Shown one piece after another: positions 8,820 through 25,017 of a DNA stretch of 46,194 nt (position 1 is the stretch's first letter; the number at the start of each line of letters is the position of its first letter). Made by a program: the position numbers and the translations under genes. Origin of the DNA: a bacterium (GTDB lineage Bacteria; Patescibacteriota; Minisyncoccia; UBA6257; 02-FULL-45-10c); the NCBI GenBank assembly GCA_021786945.1, contig JAJYMK010000003.1, forward strand, positions 103,105 to 149,298. Reading direction: 5' to 3'. Below the pieces are notes generated by a model that ran no database searches, had not been told where the DNA came from, and worked only from the letters and a program-made list of their open reading frames with translations.

Positions 8820-11147
8820 ATTTATTATTTTGTCGCAAATTTTCTTCCAGATGGCTTTTGGAAAACTTTCATATCCCTTTACTATCATAAGCGGCACATC
8901 TAAATGTTTGGCTAAAAGCTCCGAAATATCTCCAAATCTTATTTCTTTCAAAAACTTTGTTTCCGTTGCGCCTATAATCAACAAATCCGCTTCTTCTTTT
9001 TTTAGATTTTCTATTATTCCCGAAACTATTGATTTTGATCTGGCAAATTCGATTTCGTTAAAATCTTTCTTTTTAAGCTTTAGGGATTTGAGCAGTGGCC
9101 CATAGTCTGGTTTGAAATAGCGGGGAATATCAATGTTAATAATTCCTAATAGTTTTGTTTTTGGCTGGAAATAGTTTGTTATGCCCTTAAATATTTCTCC
9201 GGCTTTTTCCGAGTAAGCTCCGGTTCCCGATGGATTGCCGGCTACGATCAATGATTTTATAGGTTTAGGATTTTTAATTACGAGTAAATCACACTTTGCT
9301 TCTCTGAGAATTTGGTCAATTTTATAATTAAAGATAGTTCCTTTGGTATGTGTATAGCCCTCCCAATTCAAAAGAAGGATATCGCAATCTTCCATTTTTA
9401 CTATATCCAAAATAGTTTCCACGGAGTCTCTGCCAGCCATCAGGAGATTGTGAAAATTAATATCCTTTTTAATGCCCGGCATTTTTTCATTGAATTCTTC
9501 GGCCCAATCTTTGATATTGTCCAGAATTTGTCTGTCATGGTCCATTTTTGCGCCCTCGAGCAGAGGAAGGGTTTGTGGTACTTCATGAATCTTGGCTATT
9601 ATAATTTCTCCGTCAAAATAACTAGCCAATGCAAAGGCAATTTCAACCAGGTTTTTAAGCTCCTCGATGCTTAAATTTGATTCAATAGGAAGTAAAATTC
9701 TCTTGCCTGATTTTGGCCCAACTCTTAAGGCTTCTTCGTAGACTATTTCATTTTCGAATTTTTCACGGCTTTGTGCCAGGGAATAGGAATAGTAATTTAC
9801 CAGTCCTATCAGTAGCCAAACAAATGTTACTATCCAAGCTGTAATATTAATTTTGAGCATCGTAAGGGCCAGGAGAATATAGATAAACGAAGCTAATATC
9901 GGAGTGAGCGGAAATAAGGGAATCTTGTAAACCCATTTTGTATTCGGCCACTTAAAGTGAATATTTATTCCCGCGAGATTTAACTGAAGAAAAAGAATTA
10001 TAAAAAGTAAGCTTGCCGCACTGGCTACATCGAAAAGGGGCAGCGAAATAATCATTATTTCTATAAGAGCTATTGAAACAGTCACGGCTACATAAGGAGT
10101 AAAATTTTTAATATGTATTTTAGATATATGGGAAATAATATTTTTGTCTCTGGCCAGAGCAAAAGAAACGTGGCTAGATGAATAAATTGTTGCATTAAGT
10201 GCAGCCAGGTTTGCCAATATACCGGCGACGAGCATTAGTATTTTTCCGAAGGGTAAAACAGTCTGTGCGGTTTTAACAATCGCTCCTTCTCCGAACGAAC
10301 TTAGAGTTTGCCAGATCGGCGTGCCGCCGCTAGGCGTGGCGCCCAAAACAACAAAGGTTATTAAAATATACAGCAGGGAAACTATAGCCCATGAGGTTAT
10401 TAATCCTATTTTTAAATCCCTTGCCGGATTTTTTGTTTCTTCCCCGGCTTGTACCTGTATCTCCGATCCTTCAAATGCAATATAAAAAAAGCTTGCCGCG
10501 GCTATTACACCCAACAAACCCGAAGGCAAAAATGGAGTGAAGTTTTTTAAAGGCTCTGGATTTATAGATATTTTCCAAAAGCCAAAAATAAGGAAAAGTA
10601 AAAGTATGGCCAACAAGGCTACAGTTGTTACGTTACTGGCTTTTGCGGTTACTTTTGCACCCTTCCAATTTACATAACCAAAGATTAACACTGTTATAAA
10701 TGCTATAAACTTTGCACTGGTAAGCCAGGGGAAGGTATCAGATTGGATATTCAAAATATGAAAAAGTTCTCGGGCGTAAAAGCCGAAGCTGAGCGCATAA
10801 ACTCCGCAAGCTGAAGCATGAGCAAACCAGCTTAGCCAGCCCGCCAGAAATCCCTGGAAATTACCAAGTCCTTTTTTTACCCATAAGTATCCTCCTCCGG
10901 CTTCCGGGAATGTCGTTCCTAAGGCTAAATACATTTGAAGGTTTAAAAATGCCACGGCGGAACCTAGAACCATTGATAACATAAGTCCGGGACCGGCTAT
11001 TCCTGCAGCCGGGCCCAATAAAGTAAAAATACCGCCTCCAATAAGGGAGCCTATACCCATAAAGACTATTGAGGCCGGGCCTAAAGTCTTTGCAAGGGTA
11101 ATGCTGGTTGGCGAAGCAAGATTTATAGACCCCGATTCTTTATTCAT
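8799..11147 (-). CDS. APC-family amino acid permease fused to two C-terminal universal-stress-protein (Usp) domains.
   Basis: About 12 TM helices with a typical APC N-terminus ('GIGSLIGGGIFTLLG'). The C-terminal roughly 300 aa form two alpha/beta Usp-like halves ('ILLPIESN...', 'DLLVIK', 'ADLLIIGA'). Confidence 0.85.
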   Translation of the reverse strand: MNKESGSINLASPTSITLAKTLGPASIVFMGIGSLIGGGIFTLLGPAAGIAGPGLMLSMVLGSAVAFLNLQMYLALGTTFPEAGGGYLWVKKGLGNFQGFLAGWLSWFAHASACGVYALSFGFYARELFHILNIQSDTFPWLTSAKFIAFITVLIFGYVNWKGAKVTAKASNVTTVALLAILLLFLIFGFWKISINPEPLKNFTPFLPSGLLGVIAAASFFYIAFEGSEIQVQAGEETKNPARDLKIGLITSWAIVSLLYILITFVVLGATPSGGTPIWQTLSSFGEGAIVKTAQTVLPFGKILMLVAGILANLAALNATIYSSSHVSFALARDKNIISHISKIHIKNFTPYVAVTVSIALIEIMIISLPLFDVASAASLLFIILFLQLNLAGINIHFKWPNTKWVYKIPLFPLTPILASFIYILLALTMLKINITAWIVTFVWLLIGLVNYYSYSLAQSREKFENEIVYEEALRVGPKSGKRILLPIESNLSIEELKNLVEIAFALASYFDGEIIIAKIHEVPQTLPLLEGAKMDHDRQILDNIKDWAEEFNEKMPGIKKDINFHNLLMAGRDSVETILDIVKMEDCDILLLNWEGYTHTKGTIFNYKIDQILREAKCDLLVIKNPKPIKSLIVAGNPSGTGAYSEKAGEIFKGITNYFQPKTKLLGIINIDIPRYFKPDYGPLLKSLKLKKKDFNEIEFARSKSIVSGIIENLKKEEADLLIIGATETKFLKEIRFGDISELLAKHLDVPLMIVKGYESFPKAIWKKICDKIINKKPAEQ

Positions 11148-11200
11148 AGAGATATGATATTATTTTATCATCCGGTGATTTTTTGTTAAACTCATTAAAT

Positions 11201-11274
11201 CGGACTGTAGTATAACGGTAGTATACACCCTTGGGGTGGGTGCGACCCGGGTTCAACTCCCGGCAGTCCGACCA
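11201..11274 (+). tRNA. tRNA-Pro (anticodon GGG) with an encoded CCA.
   Basis: Acceptor cggactg/cagtccg; anticodon stem caccc/gggtg with loop tt-GGG-gt; T arm ccggg-ttcaact-cccgg; 3' acca. Confidence 0.85.
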
Positions 11275-11300
11275 GATTTTAAAAATGTTATAATTTATAT

Positions 11301-12434
11301 ATGATATTTTTGGATTTAAAAACTATTTTCATTTCAAACATAGCGATTTCTTTTATTTGCACGTTAATTTTTGTATCTCTATGGTTAGATAATAAAAATA
11401 TTTTCAGAGGGCTTTCTCTTTGGGTCGCAGGAATGGCTGCTCAATTATTAGGATCATTACTTATTTTATTGCGTGGAATCATTCCTGATTTTTTATCCAT
11501 CGTAATTGCAAATCTATTTATCGTTGGCGGTATTTTGGTTTTTTATATTGGATTCCGAGCTTTTATGGAAAAACCAGGAAGGCAAATAGTAAATTATATT
11601 TTATTGGCTTTTTTTGGAGGTGTTATATATTATTTTTCAGCCATTACTCCTAGTTTATATATTCGCACCGTGGCTTTGGCTGGAATATTTTTATTTTTTT
11701 CTTTGCAATGGGTTTGGTTTTCTTTATACACCATTAAAGGAAGCCTCCGCAGGTTAACTGCGGGAATTGGATTTGTATTTATTGTTTATTGTTTAGCTAA
11801 TTTGGCGAGAATCATTGTGGCTATAACCGGTTCCGAAAATATTGGTAATGATTTTTTTGCTTCAAATCAATTTGATACATGGATCGTTTTTGTTTATTCA
11901 TTATTAATAATCTTAATTGCTTATAATTTAATTCTATCGGTAAATAGACGTTTGTCGGTTCAAGTTGCTTTTCAAGAAGAGAAATTCAGAACTGCTTTCC
12001 GCGAGGCCCCGTATGCCGTGTTGTTTACGCATTTTTCCAATGGCCAGATTGTTGATATCAATAAATCTTTTTCCGAGATGATGGGTTATTCAAGCTCTGA
12101 AGCTGTGGGTAAAACAACTTTAGAATTGGGTATTTGGTTAAATTTTGATGATAGGAAGATTTTTGTTGATCAATTGAGTGCCGGAGGCAGCATCTCGAAT
12201 TATAATTTTAAATACAAGACTAAGTCTGGAAAAATAATTATTGGCGCAACTTGGGCTGATGTTATTGAGGTTGGTAATGAGCAATATATTTTATCCACCA
12301 TTATTGATGTAACTGAAGATACAAACGATAAGGAGAGTTTAAAAAAGATGAATGAATTTTTGGTTGGCCGCGAAATTAAAATGACGGAATTAAAAAATAA
12401 AATTAAAGAATTGGAAGAAAAAAATAAATCTTAA
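11301..12434 (+). CDS. Multi-TM membrane protein with a C-terminal PAS domain and a coiled-coil tail; no recognisable output domain.
   Basis: About 7 TM helices, then 'FREAPYAVLFTHFSNGQIVDINKSFSEMMGYSSSEAVGKTTLELGIW' (PAS pattern). TGTTATAAT (11286-11294) is followed by 6 nt and then the ATG. Confidence 0.75.
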   Translation: MIFLDLKTIFISNIAISFICTLIFVSLWLDNKNIFRGLSLWVAGMAAQLLGSLLILLRGIIPDFLSIVIANLFIVGGILVFYIGFRAFMEKPGRQIVNYILLAFFGGVIYYFSAITPSLYIRTVALAGIFLFFSLQWVWFSLYTIKGSLRRLTAGIGFVFIVYCLANLARIIVAITGSENIGNDFFASNQFDTWIVFVYSLLIILIAYNLILSVNRRLSVQVAFQEEKFRTAFREAPYAVLFTHFSNGQIVDINKSFSEMMGYSSSEAVGKTTLELGIWLNFDDRKIFVDQLSAGGSISNYNFKYKTKSGKIIIGATWADVIEVGNEQYILSTIIDVTEDTNDKESLKKMNEFLVGREIKMTELKNKIKELEEKNKS

Positions 12435-18797: not shown

Positions 18798-19469
18798 ATG
18801 GAAAATGTACTGGATTTAAAATGGAATAAGCTTCTTAGCCGCGCCGGTCTTTTTTCCTTTGTTCCTTTCGTGGAAATCGTTTTTGTTGCTGGATCAATGG
18901 CTATGGAGACCGCAGGAGAGAATTCGGACTTCGATGTTATAGTGGGCGTAAAAACCGGAAGGATTTTTACCGCCCGGGCTTTTTGTATTTTTATGTTTGG
19001 TGTGTTCGGCTGGAGAAAAAGAAGATCCGAAACTGGAACTAGGGCTAAAGACAAATTTTGTTTTAGTCATTTTGTAACTCCGGAAAAATACGGTTTATCC
19101 GGTCCGTATAATATCTATTGGGAAAAATTGTACTCTTCGCTTGTTCCAGTTTATGGAGAAAAAGAAAAAATTCAAAAATTTTATGACGCTAATGGTATAT
19201 GGATGAAAAATAAAAAGATATATACCAAGGACGTGAGGCATTTATATTTAAAGCCGGGTTATATAAAAATATTTTTAGAAAAAATACTTGGAGGAAAACT
19301 TGGTAATATTTTGGAAGTTTGGTTAAAAAATATACAGGTAGAAAAAATAGAAAAAAGTCTTAAAACCGAAAAGCAATACAAGCCAAGAATTATTTTTAAC
19401 AATCAGGAACTGGAATTTCATCCAGATACTCGCCGCATAGAAGAGATGTTGAATCGTAAGGAGTTTTAG
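18798..19469 (+). CDS. Pol-beta-superfamily nucleotidyltransferase-domain protein.
   Basis: 'FVAGSMAMETAGENSDFDVIVGV' fits the minimal NTase motif G[SG]-x(9-13)-DxD. TATAAT (18786-18791) is followed by 6 nt and then the ATG. Confidence 0.7.
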   Translation: MENVLDLKWNKLLSRAGLFSFVPFVEIVFVAGSMAMETAGENSDFDVIVGVKTGRIFTARAFCIFMFGVFGWRKRRSETGTRAKDKFCFSHFVTPEKYGLSGPYNIYWEKLYSSLVPVYGEKEKIQKFYDANGIWMKNKKIYTKDVRHLYLKPGYIKIFLEKILGGKLGNILEVWLKNIQVEKIEKSLKTEKQYKPRIIFNNQELEFHPDTRRIEEMLNRKEF

Positions 19470-20346: not shown

Positions 20347-20377
20347 ATCCCGCCGTAAAACCGGCGGGATTTTTTTT
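20347..20377 (+). terminator. Rho-independent terminator.
   Basis: atcccgccg-taaaac-cggcgggat followed by ttttttt. Confidence 0.85.
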
Positions 20378-20413
20378 AGCACTCTTGACGCTAGACTGCC
20401 AGCAAATTAAAAT
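20376..20413 (+). promoter_or_regulatory. groESL promoter overlapped by a half-degenerate CIRCE-like operator.
   Basis: TTAGCACTC (20376-20384), N9, then GACTGCCAG (20394-20402), versus the CIRCE consensus TTAGCACTC-N9-GAGTGCTAA. TTGACG (20385-20390), 17 nt, then TAAAAT (20408-20413). Confidence 0.5.
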
Positions 20414-20447: not shown

Positions 20448-20744
20448 ATGAAGTTAAATTTAAAACCTTTAAATGACCATCTCTTTATAGAACCGGTCGC
20501 CGAAGAAAAAATGACCAAGTCGGGTATAGTTTTGCCGGAGTCGGCCGAGAAAGAAAAGCCGATAAAAGGTATTGTAGTTGCCGCTGGGCCGGGAAAAATG
20601 GACGAAAAGGGTAATAGAATAAAAATGTCCGTTAAGGTTGGGGATATGGTTCTTTTCAGGAAGTACGGTCCGGATGAAATTATGATAGACGGTAAAAAAT
20701 ATTTGGTCGGAGAAGAAAACGATATTTTGGCAATTATTTTTTAA
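20448..20744 (+). CDS. groES: Co-chaperonin GroES.
   Basis: 'LKPLNDHLFIEPV...KSGIVLPESA...GIVVAAGPG'. Confidence 0.95.
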   Translation: MKLNLKPLNDHLFIEPVAEEKMTKSGIVLPESAEKEKPIKGIVVAAGPGKMDEKGNRIKMSVKVGDMVLFRKYGPDEIMIDGKKYLVGEENDILAIIF

Positions 20745-20750
20745 TTTACT

Positions 20751-22397
20751 ATGGCAAAACAAATTTTATTTAATGACAAAGCCAGGACGGCTTTGAAAAA
20801 AGGAATAGACAAGTTGGCGGAGGCGGTAAAAATGACTTTGGGTCCAAGGGGCCGTGCAGTTGTTATTGAAAAGGGCTACGGCGCTCCGCAGGTTACTTTT
20901 GATGGCGTTACTGTGGCCAAAGAAGTGGAATTGGAAGATAAATTTGAAAATCTCGGTGCTGAATTTTTGAAGCAAGCTGCCGACAAAACAAATGATGGTG
21001 TAGGCGACGGAACAACCACGTCTGTTGTCTTGGCGCATGCTTTAATTGATGCCGGTGAAAAAGCTATCAAAGAAAAAGGTTTTAATGTAATTCAATTAGC
21101 CGAAGAGCTTAAAAAGGGCAGTGAAGAGGTGGTTAAAGCTCTGGAATCTCAAAAAGAGCTCATAAACGACAATAAAAAAATTCAGGAAGTTGCCACTCTT
21201 TCCGCCAAAGATAAAAATATCGGCGCTTTGATAGCCGAGGTAATGGGTAAGATCGGTAAAGAGGGCGTTGTCACTATCGAAGATTCAAATACAGTTGGTA
21301 ATTCATACGATTTGGTTGAAGGAATGCAGTTCGACAGAGGCTATGTTTCCCAGTATATGATTACCAATCAAGAAAGAATGGAAGCTGTTTTGGAAAAGCC
21401 GTACATTTTGGTAACCGACAAAAAAATCACCTCTATCAACGAACTTTTGCCTTTGTTGGAAAAGTTGATCCAATCCGGTAAAAAAGAATTGTTTATAGTT
21501 GCCGAAGAATTGGAAGGCGAGGCTTTGGCTACTTTGGTTTTGAATAAACTTCGCGGAATTTTTACAGTTTTGGCCGTTAAAGCTCCGGGTTTTGGCGACA
21601 GAAGAAAAGAAATGCTTCAGGATATTTCTATTGTTACCGGCGCTACATTTATTTCCGATGATCTTGGAAAGAAAATTGAAAATGTGGAAATTGCCGATCT
21701 TGGACAAGCCAATCGTGTAGTTTCTGGAAAAGACAACACCACGATTGTTGGCGGAAAGGGCGCTAAAAAAGAAATTGAGGAAAGGATTGCTCAAATAAAA
21801 GCTCAGCTTAAAAAAACCGATTCGGAATTTGATAAAGAAAAATTTCAGGAAAGATTGGGTAAATTGTCTGGCGGAGTTGCTGTTATAAAAGTTGGCGCTC
21901 CTACCGAATCCGCTCAGAAAGAATTGAAACAAAGGGTTGAAGACGCCGTTTCTGCTACTCGCGCGGCTATGGAAGAAGGCATTGTTCCTGGCGGCGGTAT
22001 GGCTTTGTTCAATGTTAATTTGTCTTTGGATAAATTTACCAAAAAAGCCGAAGGCGATGTTACCAAAGAAGCCTGGGTTATTTTGGGCAAGGCTTTAAGA
22101 GCCCCTATTGAATCGATTATTATTAATAGCGGCGAATCTATTTCTAAAGTTGTGGCCGATTTGGAAGCCAAAAAGAAAAAAGGCGGAGCTTGGATTGGGT
22201 TTAATGCTATACAAAATAAACTTGGAGATTTGAAGGAGGCTGGAATTATAGATCCGTTGAAAGTTACGAAAACAGCTTTTGTAAATGCTATTTCTGTAGC
22301 TTCAAATTATCTGACAATTGGCGCGGCTATGTCCGAAAAACCAGAGTCGAAGGAAAATCATAATCATGGGGCAATGCCGGGTGGTATGGGTTACTAG
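20751..22397 (+). CDS. groEL: Chaperonin GroEL.
   Basis: 'AKQILFNDKAR', 'DGVGDGTTTSVVLA', 'AAMEEGIVPGGG', and a C-terminal 'GGMGY'. Confidence 0.97.
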   Translation: MAKQILFNDKARTALKKGIDKLAEAVKMTLGPRGRAVVIEKGYGAPQVTFDGVTVAKEVELEDKFENLGAEFLKQAADKTNDGVGDGTTTSVVLAHALIDAGEKAIKEKGFNVIQLAEELKKGSEEVVKALESQKELINDNKKIQEVATLSAKDKNIGALIAEVMGKIGKEGVVTIEDSNTVGNSYDLVEGMQFDRGYVSQYMITNQERMEAVLEKPYILVTDKKITSINELLPLLEKLIQSGKKELFIVAEELEGEALATLVLNKLRGIFTVLAVKAPGFGDRRKEMLQDISIVTGATFISDDLGKKIENVEIADLGQANRVVSGKDNTTIVGGKGAKKEIEERIAQIKAQLKKTDSEFDKEKFQERLGKLSGGVAVIKVGAPTESAQKELKQRVEDAVSATRAAMEEGIVPGGGMALFNVNLSLDKFTKKAEGDVTKEAWVILGKALRAPIESIIINSGESISKVVADLEAKKKKGGAWIGFNAIQNKLGDLKEAGIIDPLKVTKTAFVNAISVASNYLTIGAAMSEKPESKENHNHGAMPGGMGY

Positions 22398-22441: not shown

Positions 22442-22505
22442 ATTGACTGTTAATATTTTTTGTTTTAGGTTTAAACTAGAACTTTGATTTAAAAAGGAGA
22501 AGGCA

Positions 22506-22676
22506 ATGACTAAGCGTAAAGTTGGTGTCAGAAAAATTTTGCTGAACATAGCAAATTTTTTGTATATATCTCTTGTTTTTTTAATAGCACTTTTCTTTAT
22601 ATGTGCAATACTTTTTGCTTTAGCTTACGGTTTTTTCATTATGGTGGATGGTCTCCCATATATTTTTTATCACTAA
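22506..22676 (+). CDS. 56-aa hydrophobic (1-2 TM) peptide, below the ORF-track length cutoff.
   Basis: SD AAGGAGAAGG (22494-22503), then ATG 22506. The translation is MTKRKVGVRKILLNIANFLYISLVFLIALFFICAILFALAYGFFIMVDGLPYIFYH, with stop TAA at 22674-22676. An imperfect hairpin plus T-run follows. Confidence 0.45.
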   Translation: MTKRKVGVRKILLNIANFLYISLVFLIALFFICAILFALAYGFFIMVDGLPYIFYH

Positions 22677-22756
22677 AAATAAATCCCCCTCGTTATTAGA
22701 CGGAGGATTTTTATTTTTGTGGGGCTTGTCCCATACTTAATTTTTTAAGTGTGGGG

Positions 22757-22786
22757 TTGACTTACTTTTAGAGAAGAGTTTAATAA
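22757..22786 (+). promoter_or_regulatory. Sigma70-type promoter of metacaspase-like cassette A.
   Basis: TTGACT (22757-22762), 17-18 nt, then TTAATA/TAATAA. It is preceded by a 10-bp hairpin at 22730-22755. Confidence 0.5.
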
Positions 22787-22839
22787 AAGTAGAGGCTTAA
22801 AAATATATATTGGCTGAAAAGCTAAAGGGGGTGAGGAAA

Positions 22840-23556
22840 ATGAAAGCTATTGTGATGTGTGGCTTCGGCAGGAGAAACAGCAAAAAAGAAGCTCTTACTT
22901 CGGAGTTTATGAGGGACTGCAAGTTCTTTATCCGTTATTTAGTTAAAAGAGTAGGCTTAAAAACTGAAGATGTTCATTTTTTAAAGCCGGGAACCATAAA
23001 AACGATGCGTCTCTGGGGTCTTCTTGAGACTATCAAGGAAATAGTAAGGCTGAATCCCAATGAACCGTTGCTCGTTTCCTATTCCGGACACGGAGAAGCG
23101 GGTTATTGGAATTTAAGACCTCACACCAAAGAGAAAAAGACTTATTATTTTAAGTTTAAGCAGCTGATCCGCATTTTGAAGAAAAGAAATGCGCCGCTTA
23201 TAGTGGTGGCGGATTGCTGCTACGGCATGTCTATACGGAAAGAGCTCAAAAAGCTGGATTATCCCTGGCTTTTGATAGGCCTTGCTCCGCAAACCAGAGT
23301 TGGCTATGGAAGCATTGGCCAGCAGGCGATGCTTTACTGGTCCAGGAACAAACCAGCCAATCCGAAATACGACAATGGCAATGGCCGTTTGCTGAAATTC
23401 TTAAGATTCAAGAGTTACAACAAGAAATTTTATGGATTTAAGCCAAACGGAAAAAGAGGATTCCGTAAATTTTATTTTCTGTCTTCTTACAAGATGAAGA
23501 AAGTAAATTTACGCGCCGGTACAGACTTGGATTACTTGCTGTATCCAAAAAAATAA
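22840..23556 (+). CDS. Caspase/metacaspase-like (clan CD) cysteine peptidase-like protein, paralog A.
   Basis: SD AAGGGGGTGAGG (22825-22836) precedes the ATG at 22840. 'PLLVSYSGHGEAG' is His-block-like and 'PLIVVADCCYGM' is Cys-block-like, in the order and spacing of the caspase-hemoglobinase fold. Confidence 0.65.
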   Translation: MKAIVMCGFGRRNSKKEALTSEFMRDCKFFIRYLVKRVGLKTEDVHFLKPGTIKTMRLWGLLETIKEIVRLNPNEPLLVSYSGHGEAGYWNLRPHTKEKKTYYFKFKQLIRILKKRNAPLIVVADCCYGMSIRKELKKLDYPWLLIGLAPQTRVGYGSIGQQAMLYWSRNKPANPKYDNGNGRLLKFLRFKSYNKKFYGFKPNGKRGFRKFYFLSSYKMKKVNLRAGTDLDYLLYPKK

Positions 23557-23590
23557 GCTCCGATTTCGCATCGGAGCTTTTTATTTTTTG
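23555..23590 (+). terminator. Rho-independent terminator.
   Basis: aagctccgat-ttcgc-atcggagctt followed by tttatttttt. Confidence 0.85.
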
Positions 23591-23593
23591 CTA

Positions 23594-23621
23594 TTGATTT
23601 TTTTGCCACAAGCAGTATAAC
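23594..23621 (+). promoter_or_regulatory. Sigma70-type promoter of metacaspase-like cassette B.
   Basis: TTGATT (23594-23599), 16 nt, then TATAAC (23616-23621). Confidence 0.55.
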
Positions 23622-23656
23622 TAAAAGTAGATTCTTTAAAAAAGGAGGTGGGGAAA

Positions 23657-24388
23657 ATGAAGGTTTTAATAGTAACTAGCTGCGATAAAAAGATATTCTC
23701 TTATATTGATGCCGCGGATTTTTTTAACTATCTGGTTAAAGAAGTCGGGCTGACCAAAGATGACATCTTTTTTTATGGTCCTGCAGAGTATGCGGCGAAA
23801 ATAAGCTTTCACAATATATTTTTCCGCGTTTGCGATCTGACCCAAAAAGAACCACTTGTTATTTATTATTCTGGCCATGGCGATCAGCGCGGCTGGGATT
23901 TTACTAACGAGCTATTTATTGCTTATGAAGAATTGGCCGAGTTTATGGACTTCAAGAAAAGATCGGCTCCGTTGATTCTCATAAACGATTGCTGCTATGG
24001 CATGGCTGCGGTTGATTACTTCAGGGGATTAAATTTCAAAAAGGTGATTTTCGGTCTGGCCCCCAGAGATTTTCCGGGTCAAAGCGACGAATCGGGAAGC
24101 TTTTTGCTTCCTGAGTTATTTAAATATTGGCGAAAAGGCATGTCCGCTTTGCCGATATTTAAAATAAACATGAAAGAGCTGCCTGCGGAATTGAGGCGTG
24201 ATTTAAAAGCTAAAAAAATAAGTATAGATCATCCCAATCTTCGCTATGGCGATCAGATAGATTATCTGCTTTTTCCCCAAAAGACATTCGCTACGCGTTT
24301 GTACCAAGTGTCTTTGTTATTCGTAAAGGCATTGTGCGCTTTAAGGAACACAATTCTTTTTTTAACAGGAAGAAAAAAGCCGTCCTAA
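23657..24388 (+). CDS. Caspase/metacaspase-like (clan CD) cysteine peptidase-like protein, paralog B.
   Basis: SD AAGGAGGTGGGG (23642-23653) precedes the ATG at 23657. 'PLVIYYSGHGDQRGW' and 'PLILINDCCYGM' align with paralog A throughout ('YLVKxVGL', 'GLAP', 'DYLLxP'). Confidence 0.65.
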   Translation: MKVLIVTSCDKKIFSYIDAADFFNYLVKEVGLTKDDIFFYGPAEYAAKISFHNIFFRVCDLTQKEPLVIYYSGHGDQRGWDFTNELFIAYEELAEFMDFKKRSAPLILINDCCYGMAAVDYFRGLNFKKVIFGLAPRDFPGQSDESGSFLLPELFKYWRKGMSALPIFKINMKELPAELRRDLKAKKISIDHPNLRYGDQIDYLLFPQKTFATRLYQVSLLFVKALCALRNTILFLTGRKKPS

Positions 24389-24405
24389 TCGGGCGGCTTT
24401 TTATT
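24378..24405 (+). terminator. Rho-independent terminator with the stop codon in the loop.
   Basis: agccgtcc-taatc-gggcggct followed by ttttatttt. Confidence 0.8.
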
Positions 24406-24440: not shown

Positions 24441-24995
24441 ATGAATACATTAAATATTGTTTTGTTAGTTTTGGGTTTATTGGTGGTTTATTTGGTATTT
24501 TTATTTAATCGTTTGGTAGTTTTGAGAAATAGGGTAAAAGAAGCCCTTTCCGATATCGATGTTCAGTCTAAGAGGCGTTTTGATTTGATTCCAAATTTGG
24601 TAGAAACGGTGAAGGGTTATATGCAACATGAAAAAGGAGTTTTGGAAAATATCACCAAGGCTCGCTCGGCTGTGGCCGGCACCGGAACTGCCCTAGAAAA
24701 ACAGGCCGCGGAGAATCAGCTTTCCAATACATTGAAAACTTTGTTTGCCGTTTCCGAAAATTATCCGGACCTCAAGGCTAATGCCAGTTTTTTGGATTTG
24801 CAGCGAGAGCTTGCCGATACAGAAGATAAAATGCAGGCTTCCAGAAGATTTTATAATAGCGTGGTAATGGAGCTAAATAATAAGATTCAGGTTTTCCCGG
24901 CTAATCTTTTTGCCAATAAACTTGGTTTCAAAGAAGAGAAGTTTTTTGAGGTGGCGGCTGAAGCCGAAAGAGAAAGCGTTAAGGTTAAGTTTTAA
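24441..24995 (+). CDS. lemA: LemA family protein.
   Basis: An N-terminal TM helix plus 'NRLVVLRNRVKEALSDIDVQSKRRFDLIPNLVETVKGY..HE', the typical LemA pattern. Confidence 0.88.
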   Translation: MNTLNIVLLVLGLLVVYLVFLFNRLVVLRNRVKEALSDIDVQSKRRFDLIPNLVETVKGYMQHEKGVLENITKARSAVAGTGTALEKQAAENQLSNTLKTLFAVSENYPDLKANASFLDLQRELADTEDKMQASRRFYNSVVMELNNKIQVFPANLFANKLGFKEEKFFEVAAEAERESVKVKF

Positions 24996-25017
24996 TTTCT
25001 GATTTAAGCGGAAAAAT

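Follow-up and report, generated by a model that had tools for sequence, protein, structure and literature searches.

A tandem pair of caspase-like proteins beside groESL in Patescibacteria represents a divergent, un-modelled branch of clan CD

The window analysed here is a 46,194-nucleotide stretch of a Patescibacteria genome (assembly GCA_021786945.1, contig JAJYMK010000003.1, positions 103,105 to 149,298, renumbered from 1), and it contains two adjacent forward-strand genes, A (22840-23556) and B (23657-24388), that encode caspase-like cysteine peptidases of 238 and 243 amino acids. Comparison of sequence profiles and predicted folds places them in a sizeable, un-modelled and divergent branch of clan CD, with C14 (metacaspase/orthocaspase) as its nearest family. 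The overall reading that we favour, and to which we give a probability of roughly 0.5, is that the two are an ancient pair of clan CD endopeptidases that would cleave after Arg or Lys and act as a pair in protein quality control or processing. Discussion of caspase relatives in bacteria has mostly treated them as effectors of death or defence in large and complex genomes, often with sensor fusions; A and B are bare caspase-fold enzymes, catalytically intact as far as their sequence tells, and the enzyme is kept twice in some of the smallest known bacterial genomes.

An initial annotation of this DNA had described two paralogous open reading frames (ORFs) of about 240 amino acids that align along their length, and the two proteins do indeed align over 218 columns with 29% identity (E=1e-24). 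Both carry the motifs it had pointed to, YSGHG (residues 81-85 in A and 71-75 in B) and DCCYGM (125-130 in A and 111-116 in B), and the catalytic codons accordingly lie at 23089-23091 (His84) and 23218-23220 (Cys127) in A and at 23876-23878 (His74) and 23993-23995 (Cys113) in B. A mechanical list of ORFs offers longer TTG or GTG starts for both genes; we take the ATG starts at 22840 and 23657 as real because the Shine-Dalgarno (SD) sequences GGGGGTGAGG and AGGAGGTG end 4 and 7 nt upstream of them, respectively, and all homologues begin with MKAI or MKVL. B is a paralogue with the same core as A, whose isoelectric point is 10.2. The pair had also been thought to be richer in GC than its flanks. 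This is not so, the GC contents of A (0.409) and B (0.396) being equal to those of groEL (0.407) and lemA (0.389), and there is therefore no hint of foreign origin.

No curated protein-family model recognises the family of A and B, the thresholds of Pfam, NCBIfam and PADLOC all remaining out of reach. As single sequences, A scores 13.2 bits (E 0.073) and B 11.1 bits (E 0.31) against Pfam Peptidase_C14 (PF00656), which has a gathering threshold of 21.4. The NCBIfam model NF047832 (caspase, EACC1-associated) gives 14.5-15.2 bits against a cut-off of 140, with E values of about 0.01-0.02. Neither protein is matched by Pfam C13 (PF01650, legumain/GPI8) at E<=10 or by any PADLOC model at E<=1, and when seven of the small relatives described below were scanned against Pfam none passed any model.

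Homologue searches returned 19 relatives for A and 13 for B. All that carry an organism label come from metagenome-assembled genomes of Patescibacteria/Minisyncoccota or from unclassified bacterial bins; 'caspase family protein' is the name given to one of them. An alignment of 25 close homologues (A1, mean column identity 43%) has D26, Y81, G83, H84, G85, W90, C127, M130, L148, P150, G155, W167, L224, R225, G227 and D231 as its invariant residues. The first Cys of the DCC motif (C126 in A) is swapped for Thr or Ser in homologues of this alignment, and because it is replaceable in this way we assign the role of nucleophile to C127, in agreement with the metacaspase motif D-x-C-H-S-G.

Used as a profile against the PDB, A1 finds metacaspase-1 (yeast Yca1 and the C. 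glabrata/Candida enzyme) at E=5e-5, with YSGHG aligned on YsGHG and Asp26 on the Asp of the metacaspase motif CINDA. Against 1.8 billion representative sequences the same profile reaches multidomain proteins that independently pass Pfam Peptidase_C14. Comparison of A1 with C14 domains in hhalign gave 98.9% probability (E=1.3e-17) over residues 21-140, for a C14 set drawn from the profile's own matches, of whose 9 members the 3 tested against Pfam all pass. The alignment places D26, H84 and C127 on the C14 Asp, the His of GHG and the Cys of DxC, and the similarity to C14 ends at residue 140. The profile matches 687 representatives at E<=0.001, of which 83 reach E<=1e-10; among the best 147 of the 687, 130 are stand-alone proteins of at most 300 amino acids (median 229). 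A scan of GTDB was dominated by C14 proteins of Bacteroidota. The core of the initial annotation, namely stand-alone metacaspase-like proteins of clan CD with a His/Cys dyad and no sensor domain, is thus borne out by profile, profile-profile and fold comparisons, and the homologues did not turn out to be enzymes of another family.

The predicted topology of A and B is that of the clan CD caspase-hemoglobinase fold, which had been anticipated and was obtained for both proteins with AlphaFold2 and Foldseek. In this clan an alpha/beta/alpha sandwich has the first four strands and helices alpha1-alpha3 as its core, with beta3 and beta4 ending in the catalytic His and Cys, respectively (PMC4357240). 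The models have predicted local distance difference test scores (pLDDT) of 91.6 for A and 89.7 for B. Model A runs from beta1, alpha1, beta2, alpha2 and beta3 to the His, then through a small three-stranded sheet, alpha3 and beta4 to the Cys, and on through alpha4, beta5 and alpha5 to extra strands at the expected position of beta6. In A beta3 (77-82) is followed by H84 and beta4 (120-125) by C127; the corresponding elements of B are beta3 (67-72) with H74 and beta4 (106-111) with C113. Neither protein has a signal peptide or prodomain, beta1 beginning at residue 2. All significant Foldseek matches in the PDB are clan CD structures (metacaspases, legumains, caspases, GPI8 and the caspase-like domain of Raptor), and the top matches in the viral structure library BFVD are likewise all of this kind.

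These alignments span 200-247 columns and cover whole peptidase domains of legumains, caspases and metacaspases, for which reason we regard A as a complete peptidase domain, with the equivalents of p20 and p10 in one uncut chain. The description of the proteins as 'p20-only' in size consequently has to be dropped, about 240 amino acids being enough for beta1-beta5, alpha1-alpha5 and C-terminal strands. The C-terminal 90 residues are specific to the family; they supply beta5, alpha5 and further strands and hold the invariant motif L-R-x-G-x3-D (L224-R225-x-G227-x3-D231 in A), and an R-G-D-spaced motif is retained at the C-terminus of 40 of the 130 small representatives. It is here that the paralogues differ. 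Residues 176-222 of A form a beta-meander rich in Lys, Arg, Phe and Tyr, which B lacks, having a short helix instead and, in this genome, a terminal hydrophobic to amphipathic helix of 27 residues (211-237; hydropathy maximum 1.79). A 39-residue ORF at locus L052 (3101-3220; numbers with the prefix L denote the loci that we fetched) resembles the beta-meander of A-type proteins (...CLVYRKDGKFHRFYFK) and is probably the remnant of a further, decayed copy downstream of a B-A pair.

Both catalytic residues are kept in all of the 25 close homologues and all of the 130 small representatives, as had been asked of a genuine dyad. A and B are very probably active clan CD peptidases, single-domain cytoplasmic cysteine endopeptidases in which homology places the catalytic dyad at His84/Cys127 and His74/Cys113, respectively. 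The initial annotation had left room for catalytic repurposing, and a caspase fold serving as a non-catalytic scaffold, in the way of the N-terminal domain of Raptor or of pseudo-orthocaspases, would fit the presence of Raptor among the Foldseek matches and the sub-threshold matches of some remote small members to Pfam Raptor_N. Pseudo-orthocaspases, as outlined in PMC6426788, replace the His/Cys dyad by Tyr/Ser; here His and Cys are invariant in every member examined, which makes repurposing unlikely and a scaffold role extremely improbable.

As regards specificity, the S1 pocket proposed for TbMCA2 consists of Cys92, Asp95, Ser156 and Asp211 (PMC4357240). Putative equivalents of three of these are present in A, namely D26 for Asp95, S82 for Ser156 and D125 for Asp211, and in the close family each of them is either invariant or conserved to at least 90%. 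With three of the four metacaspase S1 residues kept (the Asp on alpha1, the Ser two residues before the His and the Asp two residues before the Cys), cleavage after Arg or Lys is our best guess, one at which we would put the odds as even. The metacaspase p10 with its 280-loop and the Asp residues of the Ca2+ site (TbMCA2 D173/D189/D190/D220) have no conserved equivalents in A1, where the position seven residues after C127 is Lys. Because these aspartates and a long L4 linker are absent, the enzymes would need neither Ca2+ nor intersubunit cleavage.

A distant subfamily encoded upstream of groES (P0033-P0059, for example L054 5111-5923 and 6001-6864) differs in this region. Its members have conserved Cys pairs, one CxC at the 'CxND-like' position of alpha1 and another in a C-terminal insert, which may form a zinc site; the pocket Cys of metacaspases is kept in them and the Asp is replaced by Asn. 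A locus search with the C-terminal alignment of this subfamily (L054/L010) yielded nothing but distant C14 proteins of other phyla.

Copies from about 20 loci were placed in a rough neighbour-joining tree, in which an A clade and a B clade are separate and most genomes carry one of each, side by side. By this sequence comparison the A and B lineages go back to an ancient duplication. The copies occur in the orders A-B, B-A and A-M16-B, as A alone and occasionally as two A-clade copies (A and A-prime). At L007 a B-A pair lies between typA/bipA and a subtilase gene with no groEL nearby, and since the pair is intact there, away from groEL, we conclude that A and B travel together. Their adjacency after relocation is the main evidence that they act together, a proposal that we rate slightly below even chance. 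From this pattern of retention A and B would work as a pair, either as a caspase-like heteromer or as enzymes that split a task. They might instead be independent monomers that have overlapping activity under different regulation (for example constitutive and stress-induced) and form no physical complex. Such independence would suit genes that each have a conserved promoter block and terminator, genomes with A only or with two A-clade copies, and the activity of metacaspases and legumain as monomers (PMC4357240). We consider it somewhat unlikely in view of the two lineages staying adjacent through deep divergence and relocation, and of C-terminal parts whose divergence (beta-meander in one, helix in the other) suggests complementary roles rather than redundancy.

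Each gene is preceded by a conserved non-coding block. The first (22757-22804) consists of a -35 element TTGACT (22757-22762), a 16-nt spacer, a -10 element TTTAAT (22779-22784) and about 20 conserved bases beyond it. Over 49 nt it has a mean pairwise identity of 0.82 among 8 lineages, compared with 0.66 for coding DNA, and it is present whichever paralogue leads. The second, GCTATTGATT...GTATAACTAA (23590-23625), contains GCTA-TTGATT (TTGATT 23594-23599), a 16-nt spacer and TATAAC (23616-23621) followed by TAA; within it CTATTG...GTATAACTAA is invariant in the window, L002, L004 and L006, whichever paralogue follows. A consensus promoter scan calls no promoter upstream of A or B, in the case of the first block because the second position of its -10 element is T. 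The view that each gene has its own -35 and -10 therefore stands as far as the elements lie in strongly conserved non-coding blocks (TTGACT-16-TTTAAT, 22757-22784; TTGATT-16-TATAAC, 23594-23621), and it finds no backing in the consensus scan. Each paralogue would be expressed from its own strongly conserved promoter. The blocks, both better conserved between lineages than the coding DNA that follows them, are the best-supported functional non-coding elements in the region and suggest a specific regulator, for which TAGAGG-type direct repeats on both sides of the -10 in the first block may be the binding site. The motif of the first block occurs only upstream of the first caspase-like gene and nowhere else in the window and the fetched loci, so that no regulon is visible in them.

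The two genes also end independently. An intrinsic-terminator-like hairpin with a 10-bp stem and a T-run (23555-23579; -17.8 kcal/mol, z -4.4) overlaps the stop codon of A at the foot of the stem, and hairpins of differing sequence occupy the same place in L002 and L004. The hairpin of B (24374-24402; -18.7 kcal/mol, z -4.4) has a 12-bp stem and holds the stop codon TAA in its loop. A hairpin with a T-run, better than in shuffled sequence, likewise follows groEL and the small gene between groEL and A, where it spans 22683-22719 (-11.5 kcal/mol, z -2.5). With T-run hairpins of their own, at z between -2.5 and -4.4, the genes were accurately described as self-contained cassettes.

The surroundings of the pair are those of a housekeeping region and not of a defence island. 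Upstream are groES and groEL (20448-22397, groEL at 20751-22397) and downstream lemA (24441-24995) and a gene for an M48 (HtpX-like) membrane protease, the two together spanning 24441-25920 and matched by Pfam LemA (E=6e-58) and Peptidase_M48 (E=3.5e-36); all are on the forward strand, outside the cassette, and are conserved neighbours of the pair. The order groES, groEL, small ORF if present, two caspase-like genes, lemA, then a TPM gene, a gene for a protein of about 240-270 amino acids with no Pfam match or nothing, and finally M48 is shared by about 13 distinct lineages, among which identity of the A proteins is only 40-75%. In the window the neighbourhood comprises rpoD, DUF5667 genes, groESL, lemA, htpX and a tRNA-Ser gene, and it is stable across lineages. 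In the distant subfamily, L054 has its tandem pair directly before groES; lemA-M48 still comes a few genes after groEL, and a third family copy, 4 kb upstream, adjoins RmuC; the short contig L010 has one copy about 0.9 kb upstream of groES. A gene for an M16 (pitrilysin-type) peptidase stands between A and B in L006 (5847-7079) and in the place of B in L048 (5828-7066), and the remote single-copy member of L074 lies near smpB, an HtrA-type protease gene and an M16 peptidase gene (10468-11745).

We read this neighbourhood as pointing to a housekeeping task, protein quality control or processing in the company of GroES/GroEL and the LemA-HtpX membrane module, rather than to death or phage defence. 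A role in proteostasis, for which yeast metacaspase Yca1 offers a precedent in the proteostasis role summarised in PMC6341073, is a tentative proposal drawn from gene order in compact genomes, with the odds leaning against it. The initial annotation had considered effectors of death or defence, and an abortive-infection protease, killing the cell or cutting targets of phage or host, would be in keeping with the many prokaryotic caspase-like proteases that act in conflict systems and with the sub-threshold similarity (E about 0.01-0.02) to the EACC1-associated caspase model of NCBIfam. We regard such a role as very unlikely and find it unsupported: no PADLOC model matches, a tblastn search of a phage collection found no homologue of A or B, no sensor, NTPase or gasdermin partner is present, and a neighbourhood with rpoD, groESL, lemA and htpX that is stable across lineages and has the GC content of its flanks is unlike a variable island.

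A number of observations weigh against a pair of Arg/Lys-cleaving peptidases in quality control. The Pfam C14 threshold is reached by neither A nor B, nor by the small relatives tested. The equivalent of the pocket residue Cys92 is Phe or Ser in the A/B family, and Asp26 and Asp125 vary across the wider family, which leaves specificity uncertain. An obligate A-B heteromer is argued against by A alone in L048 and L069, by A with A-prime in L050 and by the separate promoters of A and B. The linkage to groESL may be inherited synteny in one lineage of compact genomes, the genes being separate transcription units, and the remote members in L060 and L074 have no groEL nearby. A search for the controlling inverted repeat of chaperone expression (CIRCE) gave a single degenerate match in front of groES and no match in front of A or B, and there is therefore no evidence that HrcA co-regulates the pair with groESL. 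The most specific form of the proposal, in which A and B, an ancient pair met so far only in Patescibacteria-type genomes, are the smallest natural caspase-fold proteases and form a caspase-like heterodimer that works with GroES/GroEL (and LemA-HtpX) in quality control, is in our view unlikely; if true, it would give the yeast metacaspase, in its proteostasis role unconnected with death, a parallel in bacteria and open a window on the origin of caspase dimerisation and function.

The small gene upstream of A (22506-22676, forward strand) encodes a 56-residue membrane peptide, single-pass or hairpin, and, as first described, is hydrophobic (19-residue Kyte-Doolittle maximum 3.13) and led by an SD sequence (AGGAG, 22495-22499). 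Counterparts in L001-3, L006 and L078 have the same length and a basic N-terminus followed by a hydrophobic stretch, at low identity, and the stem of its terminator shows compensatory changes in L002, L006, L078, L004 and L052. SD, terminator and conserved length mark it as a genuine gene. A database search with the peptide returned only itself, conservation being read from the fetched loci. Other lineages have at this position an unrelated 84-residue membrane protein, a soluble protein of about 108 residues or nothing, and the peptide, which had been put forward as a possible conserved partner or substrate, is thus a lineage-specific neighbour and not a general one. Co-occurrence of the hydrophobic C-terminal helix of B with the peptide held in three lineages and was ruled out by L078, which has the peptide and a B without the tail.

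These data bear on the idea that A and B serve one specific substrate, such as the upstream small membrane protein, as a dedicated maturation protease or transpeptidase in the manner of legumain or GPI8 transamidase, and not quality control at large. In most lineages a small ORF, usually for a membrane protein, does lie between groEL and the first caspase-like gene, the N-terminus of the peptide is rich in Lys and Arg, the C-terminal hydrophobic helix of B in the window could hold B at the membrane, and in Foldseek B is matched best by asparaginyl endopeptidases/ligases and the GPI transamidase. We nevertheless judge the idea distinctly unlikely, seeing that the upstream ORF is of three unrelated types (56, 84 and about 108 residues, the last soluble) and missing in L057, L071 and L072, that genomes without it keep fully conserved A and B, that the tail of B is absent from L078, which has the peptide, and that the likeness to legumain and GPI8 is one of fold only, C14 being nearest by sequence.

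Between the terminator of the peptide gene and the first promoter block lies a variable segment (22718-22756), just upstream of the -35, for which mutually exclusive hairpins had been proposed. They do exist in the sequence, one at 22718-22735 and the other, with 12 bp, at 22729-22756 in the minimum-free-energy fold. As a switch they are not conserved: the segment is missing in the closest relative, L078, and in L002, L006, L004 and L052, and behaves as an indel-prone spacer, with related GC hairpins (GGGGCTTG.CCC) at that spacer in L050 and L048. An Rfam scan gave only tRNA and terminator-driven noise and left the hairpin segment at 22718-22756 unmatched.

Further afield, a CIRCE-like element at 20376-20402 (TTAGCACTC-N9-GACTGCCAG, with 3 mismatches in the right arm) overlaps a TTGACG -35 upstream of groES, an arrangement suggestive of HrcA-type control over groESL. 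A conserved protein of about 220 amino acids without a Pfam match is encoded a few genes upstream of groES (L054 3731-4393, L057 2148-2813, window 18798-19469), and its recurrence extends the synteny beyond the caspase-like genes. The copies in L054 and L057 share a nucleotidyltransferase-like motif (..SDFDVI(V/I)GA..), and position and size are the sole grounds for assigning the window ORF. In L076 the genes after the remote family member P0045 (2039-2755) are, in order, one for a predicted lipoprotein carrying the zinc-metalloprotease motif HEVCH and one for RmuC. On the other side of the pair in the window, a tRNA-Ser(GGA) gene (25964-26051) precedes an ORF for a 92-residue GIY-YIG nuclease (26097-26375). 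Two copies of a direct repeat of 62 nt, 97% identical, flank this ORF at 26034-26095 and 26410-26471, the first of them overlapping the tRNA at its 3' end, and the arrangement (25964-26471) resembles a small mobile GIY-YIG element that has inserted at the tRNA gene.

A new profile for the family would improve the annotation of Patescibacteria, the family being missed by Pfam, NCBIfam and PADLOC. If the link to quality control holds, A and B would offer a minimal model enzyme, of 28 kDa, for studies of structure and mechanism, and the view that proteostasis and not cell death was the ancestral job of this protease fold would gain support.

Among known systems, the EACC1-associated caspases (NF047832) and other conflict-system effectors share weak similarity with A and B near the His and Cys, whereas A and B have no EACC1 or NTPase partner and stand in a housekeeping context. 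GSU0716 of Geobacter (PDB 3bij) is likewise a stand-alone bacterial caspase-fold protein of about 260 amino acids without known function and aligns over 247 columns; the match is weak (E=3.8e-4, 14% identity) and the protein comes from another lineage. We know of no tandem pair or groEL context for it. Legumain and GPI8 (C13) resemble A and B in having a single-chain peptidase domain of similar length with six strands and five helices, and they are the top Foldseek matches for B and high ones for A, over about 230-280 columns. A and B differ from them in lacking a Pfam C13 match and an LSAM-type C-terminal prodomain, in being cytoplasmic and not secretory and in their S1 residues.

The best PDB matches of A and B, by sequence as by fold, are the type I metacaspases (Yca1/Mca1 and TbMCA2), with YSGHG, D-x-C-[HY]-[SG]-G/M and the Asp of the alpha1 'ND' motif aligned. 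In contrast to these, A and B lack an N-terminal prodomain, a p10 with a 280-loop and the Ca2+-binding aspartates, and no beta7/beta8 pair is aligned; the template modelling scores (TM-scores) of the matches are about 0.45-0.52 and the hhalign similarity is restricted to residues 21-140. Orthocaspases such as MaOC1 of Microcystis are prokaryotic, have a His-Cys dyad in a caspase-hemoglobinase core, are stand-alone in some cases and lack a metacaspase-type p10 and the aspartates of the Ca2+ site (PMC5756287), all of which is shared by A and B, and an acidic specificity pocket is expected. Being prokaryotic, with a p20-type catalytic core and without the metacaspase p10, A and B can be counted among the orthocaspases, from which they differ in falling below the Pfam Peptidase_C14 threshold, in lacking the Cys of the specificity pocket and in having a C-terminal part of their own with the motif L-R-x-G-x3-D. 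Cyanobacterial metacaspases were reported to be absent from a streamlined clade with small genomes (PMC3501461); A and B, as an ancient tandem pair of two paralogues, are found in the ultra-small genomes of Patescibacteria.

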